The notes beneath the pieces were generated by a model. That model did not search any database and was not told the origin of the DNA. It saw only the letters and a list, made by a program, of their open reading frames with translations. A stretch of DNA of 64,000 nt from the NCBI RefSeq assembly GCF_900539095.1, contig NZ_UQAR01000003.1; one strand, 5' to 3'. The stretch's first letter is position 1. Every line of letters begins with the position of its first letter. Positions 35,765 through 35,943 of this stretch are shown here, piece by piece. A program made the translations under genes and the position numbers. The stretch comes from an uncultured Ruminococcus sp. Lineage in GTDB: Bacteria; Bacillota; Clostridia; Oscillospirales; Ruminococcaceae.

Positions 35765-35820
35765 AAAGTTAGAATAATCTAACTTTTCGGCAATTTTTAA
35801 AGGTTAGCATTTTCTAACCC
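35765..35820. promoter_or_regulatory. two tandem palindromic operators (AAAGTTAG-aataat-CTAACTTT and AGGTTAG-catttt-CTAACC) between feoA promoter and RBS
   Basis: perfect inverted repeats read directly; same rGTTAG-N6-CTAACy pattern recurs at 6 other loci. Confidence 0.6.
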
Positions 35821-35827
35821 GTATTAT

Positions 35828-35856
35828 AGTTTATCACGGCTAACCTGATTTGTCAA
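35828..35856 (-). promoter_or_regulatory. feo operon promoter (TTGACA -35, TGnTAAACT extended -10) with GGTTAGC half-site in spacer
   Basis: minus-strand reading CTTGACAAATCAGGTTAGCCGTGATAAACT. Confidence 0.45.
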
Positions 35857-35904
35857 GACTAAAAGTGATGTTTTTTCAATTTTGTAAGCTTGCACAAAAA
35901 TACA

Positions 35905-35943
35905 AGTTAGTATTGGATAACTTTTAGTTAGTCTGCATTAACC
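35905..35943. promoter_or_regulatory. two weaker operator-like sites (AGTTAG-tattgg-ATAACT; AGTTAG-tctgca-TTAACC) upstream of feo promoter
   Basis: one mismatch per site versus consensus. Confidence 0.35.

Follow-up and report, generated by a model that had tools for sequence, protein, structure and literature searches.

A 2024 review finds the DtxR family of regulators mainly in high-GC Gram-positive bacteria and archaea (PMC11672702). DtxR and IdeR of Actinobacteria bind a 19-bp box, TTAGGTTAGSCTAACCTAA; in IdeR-DNA crystal structures four subunits take one CCTAA repeat each, with the dimers on repeats 1 and 3 or 2 and 4 of the box (PMC8464063). IdeR also binds half a box as a single dimer, for which the 14-bp consensus TTAGG-N4-CCTAA has been proposed, and each pentamer requires T as its third base and C as its first or second (PMC8464063). 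MntR places one dimer on each palindrome of ~20 bp, as is described for the related DR2539 (bioRxiv 10.1101/2024.02.12.579695). DtxR-family proteins are tied to feoAB in archaea (PMC8516115), such a link is known or proposed in Akkermansia (PMC12552655), and an annotated ideR is mentioned for C. beijerinckii (PMC11497831). In C. difficile and C. acetobutylicum, feo and flavodoxin form the core of an iron-starvation response that is controlled by Fur (PMC6311696). Here we describe a palindrome, GTTAG-N6-CTAAC, that recurs before iron-related genes in 64,000 nt of an uncultured Ruminococcus sp. (contig NZ_UQAR01000003.1 of assembly GCF_900539095.1; this whole stretch is called the window), together with two small DtxR-like proteins encoded there, R2 (56709-57083) and R1 (32040-32420).

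Judged from sequence comparison, the palindrome is probably the operator of R2, a DtxR-family metalloregulator without the SH3-like domain, which would act as an iron-responsive repressor of a Feo/flavodoxin regulon. We put the probability of this reading at roughly 75%. The regulon would probably comprise FeoA-FeoA-FeoB, a ZupT-like ZIP transporter, flavodoxin, DUF2325, DUF3793, an HMA protein, R2 and R1.

The exact pattern GTTAGNNNNNNCTAAC has six matches in the window, starting at 35768, 35803, 37039, 37404, 57102 and 57634. The mean in shuffled versions of the window was 0.03 and none of 100 shuffles reached six. With up to one mismatch in GTTAG-N6-CTAAC, 11 matches were found where 1.5 were expected. 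A weight matrix built solely from sites of other genomes and then run on the window scored the six exact sites at 19.6-24.1 (best match in 50 shuffles: 17.3) and five more sites at 11.9-14.7. All of the 14 top matrix matches were intergenic, in a window whose intergenic share is ~10%. The genes behind the sites are feoA-feoA-feoB, DUF2325-DUF3793-flavodoxin, R2 with the ZIP transporter gene, and the HMA gene, and all target genes lie on the minus strand. Symmetrized over the exact sites of the window and of the related loci described below, the operator consensus is R-GTTAG-c-wwww-g-CTAAC-Y (18 bp).

Ten sites had been listed in an earlier sequence-only reading of this DNA, which took them for the operators of a metal, probably iron, regulon. 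Nine of them stand, six exact and three with one mismatch (35906, 35927 and 57244). The tenth, ATTAG-N6-CTAAT at 49076-91 before a small open reading frame and a P-type ATPase gene, is present, but its matrix score of 4.5 is indistinguishable from chance; the bare TTAG-N6-CTAA is expected 1.3 times per window by chance. Because of this low score, and because homologues of the ATPase in four other loci have no matching operator upstream, we did not count the site. Three sites came in addition to that list, at 37431-37446 (one mismatch), 35829-35844 (two mismatches) and 31971-31986 (one mismatch).

We used a profile from 27 R2 homologues to collect 80 loci from different Clostridia species (878 kb in total; single loci are given as L with a number). 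These contained 38 exact copies of GTTAG-N6-CTAAC, with ~1 expected. Across window and loci, spacers of 0-14 nt gave 44 exact sites at N6 and 0-2 at each other length; these other spacers and the everted arrangement CTAAC-Nk-GTTAG were at chance level. In an unbiased test of all 5+5 palindromes with spacers of 0-10 upstream of feoA, DUF2325 and DUF3793, from which the window was left out, GTTAG-N6-CTAAC ranked first (15 of 20 target regions vs one of 76 control upstream regions), and the runners-up were shifted versions of it.

Placing the window proteins on the loci by tblastn revealed a recurring cluster of feoA-feoA-feoB, R2 and DUF2325-DUF3793-flavodoxin. The loci include Cuneatibacter, Hominisplanchenecus, Faecalispora, Intestinimonas, Sedimentibacter, Youxingia and uncultured Lachnospiraceae and Oscillospiraceae. 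Sites lay before feoA, in the feoA/feoB gap, before R2 homologues, before DUF2325/DUF3793 (often paired) and before ZIP genes. The same motif thus precedes orthologous genes in several diverged genomes, which bears out the idea of a metal regulon operator with iron as the probable metal. Closer relatives of the window (L087 and L090-L095), reached via R1 homologues, keep even weak sites at the same relative positions: the site in the promoter spacer, the DUF2325/DUF3793 site, the tandem pair in the leader (35-36 bp apart) and the site between R1 and a gene pair for an ABC ATPase and an FtsX permease. As a separate observation, L063 carries an exact operator at 2851, which precedes a gene for pyruvate formate-lyase by 64 bp and hints that the same regulator has rewired central metabolism in that genome.

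Promoters were predicted with a consensus scan of the sigma-70 type, and the start sites used here are predictions as well. Strong promoters were predicted before all four units (feo, DUF2325, R2 and HMA). Features of the feo region are as follows; operators, being palindromes, are given without a strand.

35828-35856, minus strand: predicted feo promoter, -35 TTGACA at 35856-35851, -10 TAAACT at 35833-35828, TG-extended
35829-35844: feo operator O1, minus-strand sequence GTTAGCCGTGATAAAC, two mismatches, filling the -35/-10 spacer
35802-35819: feo operator O2, exact gGTTAGCATTTTCTAACc, matrix score 22.7, starting 9 nt past the -10 (minus strand)
35767-35784: feo operator O3, exact, matrix score 19.6, in the 5' leader 42 nt before the feoA start
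35906-35942: two distal sites upstream of the feo -35 (35906-35921 and 35927-35942), one mismatch each, 21 bp apart, matrix scores 14.7 and 13.0
32040-35734, minus strand: feo operon, with feoA 35522-35734, feoA 35249-35470 and feoB 32660-35149 (Pfam)
3' part of the feo operon, minus strand: FeoB-associated Cys-rich protein 32448-32606, then R1 (DtxR-like, ligand-less) 32040-32420

The other three units are built as follows.

37429-37458, minus strand: predicted DUF2325 promoter, -35 TTGACA at 37458-37453, -10 TAATAT at 37434-37429
37403-37420: DUF2325 operator, exact, matrix score 24.1, starting 9 nt past the -10
37431-37446: DUF2325 spacer operator, minus-strand sequence GTTAGCGTGTGCTAAT, one mismatch
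37038-37055: operator between the DUF2325 stop codon and the DUF3793 ribosome-binding site, exact, matrix score 22.1
36033-37371, minus strand: flavodoxin operon, with DUF2325 37069-37371, DUF3793 36453-37025 and flavodoxin 36033-36440 (Pfam)
57268-57296, minus strand: predicted R2-ZIP promoter, TTGACA, 17 nt, TATAAT, 12 of 12 consensus positions
57243-57260: R2 promoter operator, one mismatch, matrix score 12.2, starting 8-9 nt past the -10 (57273-57268)
57101-57118: R2 leader operator, exact, matrix score 23.2, 19-34 nt before the R2 start codon
55930-57083, minus strand: R2-ZIP unit, with R2 56709-57083 (124 aa) and a ZIP/ZupT-like transporter 55930-56712
minus strand: predicted HMA promoter, -10 TACAAT at 57662-57657, -35 TTGAAA at 57685-57680
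57633-57650: HMA operator, exact, matrix score 22.9, starting 7 nt past the -10
57355-57609, minus strand: HMA gene for an 84-aa HMA-domain protein with the motif MCGMC

In all four predicted promoters of the window an operator starts 7-9 nt past the -10 and therefore covers the expected transcription start, a placement typical of repressors. This agrees with the sequence-only reading, in which the palindrome sat at or just downstream of the -10 wherever a promoter could be read. The feo and DUF2325 promoters carry an additional operator inside the -35/-10 spacer, and its right half-site is the -10 hexamer itself (TAAACT in feo, TAATAT in DUF2325). This dual-operator design can be written as TTGACA-N5/6-GTTAG-N6-(CTAAC or TAAAC = -10), with the second operator, over the predicted transcription start, 10-14 nt later. 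We found 14 such promoters in 12 genomes; of 17 cases of TTGAC[AT] followed by GTTAG, 14 had a gap of exactly 5 or 6 nt. Distances between neighbouring operators clustered at 20-28 and 32-36 bp; O2 and O3 of feo are 35 bp apart and the orthologous tandem pair of L090 (3933/3969) 36 bp. Extra copies lie in the leaders (35767-84 and 57101-18) and in the DUF2325/DUF3793 gap (37038-55). The last of these could be an internal roadblock or could serve an internal promoter; sites at this position also occur in L090 (2608, one mismatch) and L094 (3123, exact).

R2 belongs to the DtxR family by both of its domains (PF02742, 48 bits with a cut-off of 27; PF01325, 31.6 bits with a cut-off of 26). At 124 aa it ends after the dimerization domain, and no SH3-like domain was found. 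E9, E13, H80, C102, E105 and H106 are invariant in all 27 homologues. A profile alignment places these residues on E7 (uncertain), E11, H77, E99, E102 and H103 of B. subtilis MntR. The position of MntR E99 is thus an invariant Cys in the R2 homologues, as is C102 in DtxR. The position of DtxR M10 is D, N or M, with Met in only some homologues. The recognition helix reads S/T-K-P-S-V-S, and that of DtxR/IdeR is S37-x-P39-T40-V41-S42. In DtxR/IdeR, S37, P39 and T40 contact the CCTAA pentamer (PMC8464063). Proteins of the R2 type form at least 8000 clusters at 90% identity, and names of R1 and R2 homologues include Ruminococcus sp. and Oscillospiraceae. The protein had already been singled out as a candidate regulator, which is supported by its homologues in many Clostridia: they are preceded by the motif and adjoin the same targets. 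One R2 homologue, in a Bacillota metagenome-assembled genome (MAG; L055 6001-6381), has an in-frame stop at codon 19, which may reflect either a pseudogene or a faulty assembly.

The 6-bp spacer had been taken for a non-canonical spacing of the DtxR/IdeR half-site. We disagree on this point. TTAGG-N4-CCTAA, the single-dimer consensus of IdeR, is the same as TTAG-N6-CTAA (PMC8464063), so the geometry of the clostridial operator is not new but that of a DtxR/IdeR site for one dimer. All 44 exact sites have the form GTTAG-N6-CTAAC, nCTAA satisfies the pentamer rule of IdeR, and the half-site centres are 11 bp apart, as for one IdeR dimer. The classical core GTTAG-N1-CTAAC did not occur in the window and occurred twice in the 878 kb of related loci, which is the chance level. 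These two copies lie at L013 5915 and L021 3789, one of them 86 bp upstream of an R2 homologue in a Blautia MAG.

R2 and DtxR/IdeR thus share the protein family, the Cys/Glu/His primary metal site, the helix pattern S/T-x-P-S/T-V-S, the nCTAA pentamer, the spacing per dimer and the placement of operators over iron-uptake promoters. They differ in the third, SH3-like domain, which R2 lacks, and in the arrangement of sites: the clostridial single-dimer palindromes stand side by side, 20-36 bp apart, whereas IdeR dimers interleave on the 19-bp box. The conserved G lies outside in the clostridial half-site (G-TTAG) and inside in that of IdeR (TTAG-G). The hosts are low-GC anaerobic Clostridia, and the regulon consists of Feo, flavodoxin and ZIP instead of siderophore genes. 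MntR of B. subtilis and E. coli resembles R2 in its two-domain build and size, but has E99 where R2 has Cys, and acts on mntH/mntABC whereas the targets here are iron genes. The archaeal DtxR-type regulators of feoAB (P. furiosus, M. voltae) are similar in that they too tie a DtxR-family protein to feoAB in anaerobic hosts; Leyn and Rodionov reportedly named such an archaeal regulator 'FetR' in 2015. The TroR motif of Hfx. volcanii, TTTAGGC-N3-CCTAAA in tandem sites ~30 bp apart (PMC10783522), is also a palindrome with a TTAG/CTAA core, but has N3 between TTTAGGC and CCTAAA and an archaeal host.

We infer that R2 binds the palindromes and acts as a repressor, with iron as its signal. With ample Fe(II), each palindrome would be occupied by one R2 dimer loaded with metal. 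The operators lie over the -10 and the predicted start point of the presumed sigma-A promoters, so that bound R2 would exclude RNA polymerase there, and R2 on the leader operators would block elongation. At low iron, apo-R2 would leave the DNA and the regulon would be de-repressed. Such a mechanism is that of an ordinary metal-dependent repressor; what is added here, for bacteria that abound in gut and rumen, is a defined operator, a promoter design with two operators that is conserved, and a regulon that is coherent.

Several observations weigh against this reading. For about half of the R2 homologues, the 350 bp upstream contain no site, so that autoregulation is not universal. The neighbours of these homologues are unrelated housekeeping genes. 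We considered a separate subfamily, but in a neighbour-joining tree the site-less homologues were mixed with site-bearing ones and they have the same helix; this looks like one R2 family whose gene is autoregulated in only some genomes. R2 was the bait by which all 80 loci were collected, and its presence beside the motif is therefore in part a product of the sampling. ZIP and HMA proteins belong more typically to zinc or copper systems, and the sequence does not reveal the metal specificity of R2, since the M10 position is variable and the SH3-like domain, which provides two ancillary-site ligands in DtxR, is absent. The nearest solved structures of R2 are those of MntR, and the JGI name for its homologues is 'Mn-dependent'. 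R1, encoded inside the regulon and with a similar helix, could also bind the sites. The literature searched, which did not extend to RegPrecise or the archaeal DtxR comparative study, contained no description of this operator or regulon for Clostridia.

R1 is the least ordinary element of the locus, a ligand-less paralogue encoded by the regulon itself. It has 126 aa, and its gene closes the feo operon. R1 is 37% identical to R2 over 98 residues, and its helix, T-K-A-S-T-V-K, resembles that of R2. In the alignment with MntR and R2 all of its ligand positions are replaced (K/R/F/S/V/V/S), and this loss was seen in all 14 clade members that we examined. Homologues lie at 7001-7375 in L087, L090, L093, L094 and L095, and ligand-less relatives occur within the regulon in two other lineages (L055 4383-4745 and L066 7632-8003). 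In a profile search ~35 of the best 150 cluster representatives were ligand-less, many of them with Cys at the H106 position.

R1 might bind the operator in place of R2, or act with or against it as a metal-independent competitor or heterodimer partner, which we consider improbable. It is true that R1 is always encoded within the regulon and that R1-bearing loci have added sites upstream of the feo -35. These are asymmetric (GTTwn-N6-CTAAC), with a perfect CTAAC half and GTTAA, GTTAT or GTTTG as the other half, and often form pairs 20-21 bp apart (35906-35942 in the window, L094 3735-3802, L095 6608-6643, L093 3574-3635, L087 3374, L090 3824); none was found in six feo promoters of other genera. 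But most motif-bearing loci, from many genera, show only R2 nearby, which argues against R1 as a general binder, and the R1 clade is small (175 matches vs at least 8000 for R2, with 15 representatives at E≤1e-30). Moreover, R1 has no sensing site, and the control of a metal regulon cannot be explained by such a regulator alone.

A division of labour between the two paralogues is a somewhat better prospect, but still doubtful. R2 would sense iron, and R1, produced from the de-repressed feo operon, would be a metal-independent partner that resets or amplifies the iron response. R1 might then bind the distal asymmetric sites or heterodimerize with R2. If this is true, such built-in feedback by two paralogues would be undescribed for DtxR-family circuits.

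No more probable than binding by R1 is that R2 acts on the same operator in response to manganese or zinc instead of iron. The kinship of R2 to MntR among solved structures and NCBIfam models, the 'Mn-dependent' label, the Asp at the position of MntR D8 in the R2 of the window, and the ZIP and HMA proteins in the regulon would all fit such a signal. Some FeoB proteins, too, carry Mn. On the other hand, the MntR ligand E99 is replaced by the invariant Cys seen in DtxR/IdeR, and R2 falls far short of the NCBIfam MntR models, with scores of 83 (cut-off 153) and 62 (cut-off 138). Nor was any site adjoined by a gene for NRAMP, for an ABC transporter of Mn, for a Znu system or for a paralogue of a ribosomal protein. 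Flavodoxin and Feo, in contrast, are hallmark clostridial iron-starvation genes (PMC6311696). Iron is thus our best reading of the signal metal, given that feo and flavodoxin belong to the Fur-controlled core, that ZupT-type ZIP transporters are broad-range divalent-cation carriers, that a site precedes the pyruvate formate-lyase gene, and that R2 has the invariant Cys of the DtxR/IdeR type.

It is very unlikely that the palindromes are bound by Fur, by a protein encoded elsewhere or by some other regulator outside the DtxR family, with R2 no more than a regulated neighbour. The analysis covers a single window of the genome, and genes of a regulon often cluster without being its regulator. Yet the half-site and its spacing are those of the IdeR single-dimer site (PMC8464063), and R2 is, R1 apart, the only DNA-binding protein that recurs beside the sites across genera. 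The operator has no similarity to a Fur box: no 7-1-7 box (TGATAATnATTATCA) was found in the five regulatory regions of the window, where the best match had 4-6 mismatches in 14 positions. No fur gene was present among ten open reading frames scanned from the first 29 kb of the window. Fur regulons of C. difficile and C. acetobutylicum are alike in their feo and flavodoxin core and in repression at plentiful iron (PMC6311696), but use an unrelated regulator family and operator. The earlier remark that Clostridia usually run this regulon through Fur thus holds for the clostridia studied.

The weakest explanation, that the palindromes are hairpins of leader RNA (attenuators or stability elements) and not DNA sites, can practically be dismissed: each can fold into a stem of 5-7 bp (-4.7 to -6.8 kcal/mol) and one was picked up as terminator-like, but these stems are weak, GTTAG/CTAAC is invariant in 44 of 44 sites without compensatory changes while the loop is free, the -35/-10 spacer, which is not transcribed, contains many of the copies, and no Rfam family matched anywhere in the window.

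Little work has been done on how Lachnospiraceae and Oscillospiraceae/Ruminococcus control iron, and the usual assumption is a Fur system like that of C. difficile. Our findings point to another regulator family, which in these gut and rumen bacteria would most likely do the job that Fur has in the clostridia studied. Its operator is well defined and searchable, so that iron regulons become predictable from genome or metagenome sequence. The widespread annotation as 'Mn-dependent regulator' is probably wrong for R2-type proteins and could be corrected.

The genes for DUF2325 and DUF3793 nearly always share an operon with flavodoxin, under the same operator. Besides the window, the cluster of all three with sites was found in L042, L044, L054, L058, L060, L065, L066 and L072, and the association was also seen in L090, L094 and L095. 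Given this arrangement, both are probably part of the iron-starvation/flavodoxin system, which would place two families of unknown function beside flavodoxin in the iron-starvation response.

The gene order of the feo operon recurs in L087, L090, L093 and L094. The gap between the second feoA and feoB of the window (35150-35248) contains no operator, though one is common there in other loci (L044 5120, L049 9056, L055 1553, L058 5203, L061 5269, L066 5202, L074 2630 and L082 8647). Downstream of the operon lie the following features.

31971-31986: site between the R1 stop codon and the ABC ATPase gene, one mismatch, matrix score 13.6
31171-31887: ABC ATPase, followed by an FtsX permease at 28901-31159 (Pfam)

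The position of this site is kept in L090 (7431, one mismatch) and L094 (7457, exact), and the ABC/FtsX pair, a MacB-like transporter, may be a further member of the regulon. The ZIP protein has ZupT as its nearest NCBIfam model, with a score below the cut-off, and a site precedes the ZIP gene in L069 too. Between two parts of the regulon, at 51542-55516, the window encodes a 1324-aa multidomain GH5 cellulase (CBM65, CBM11, X2), which fits a fibre-degrading, Ruminococcus-like organism.

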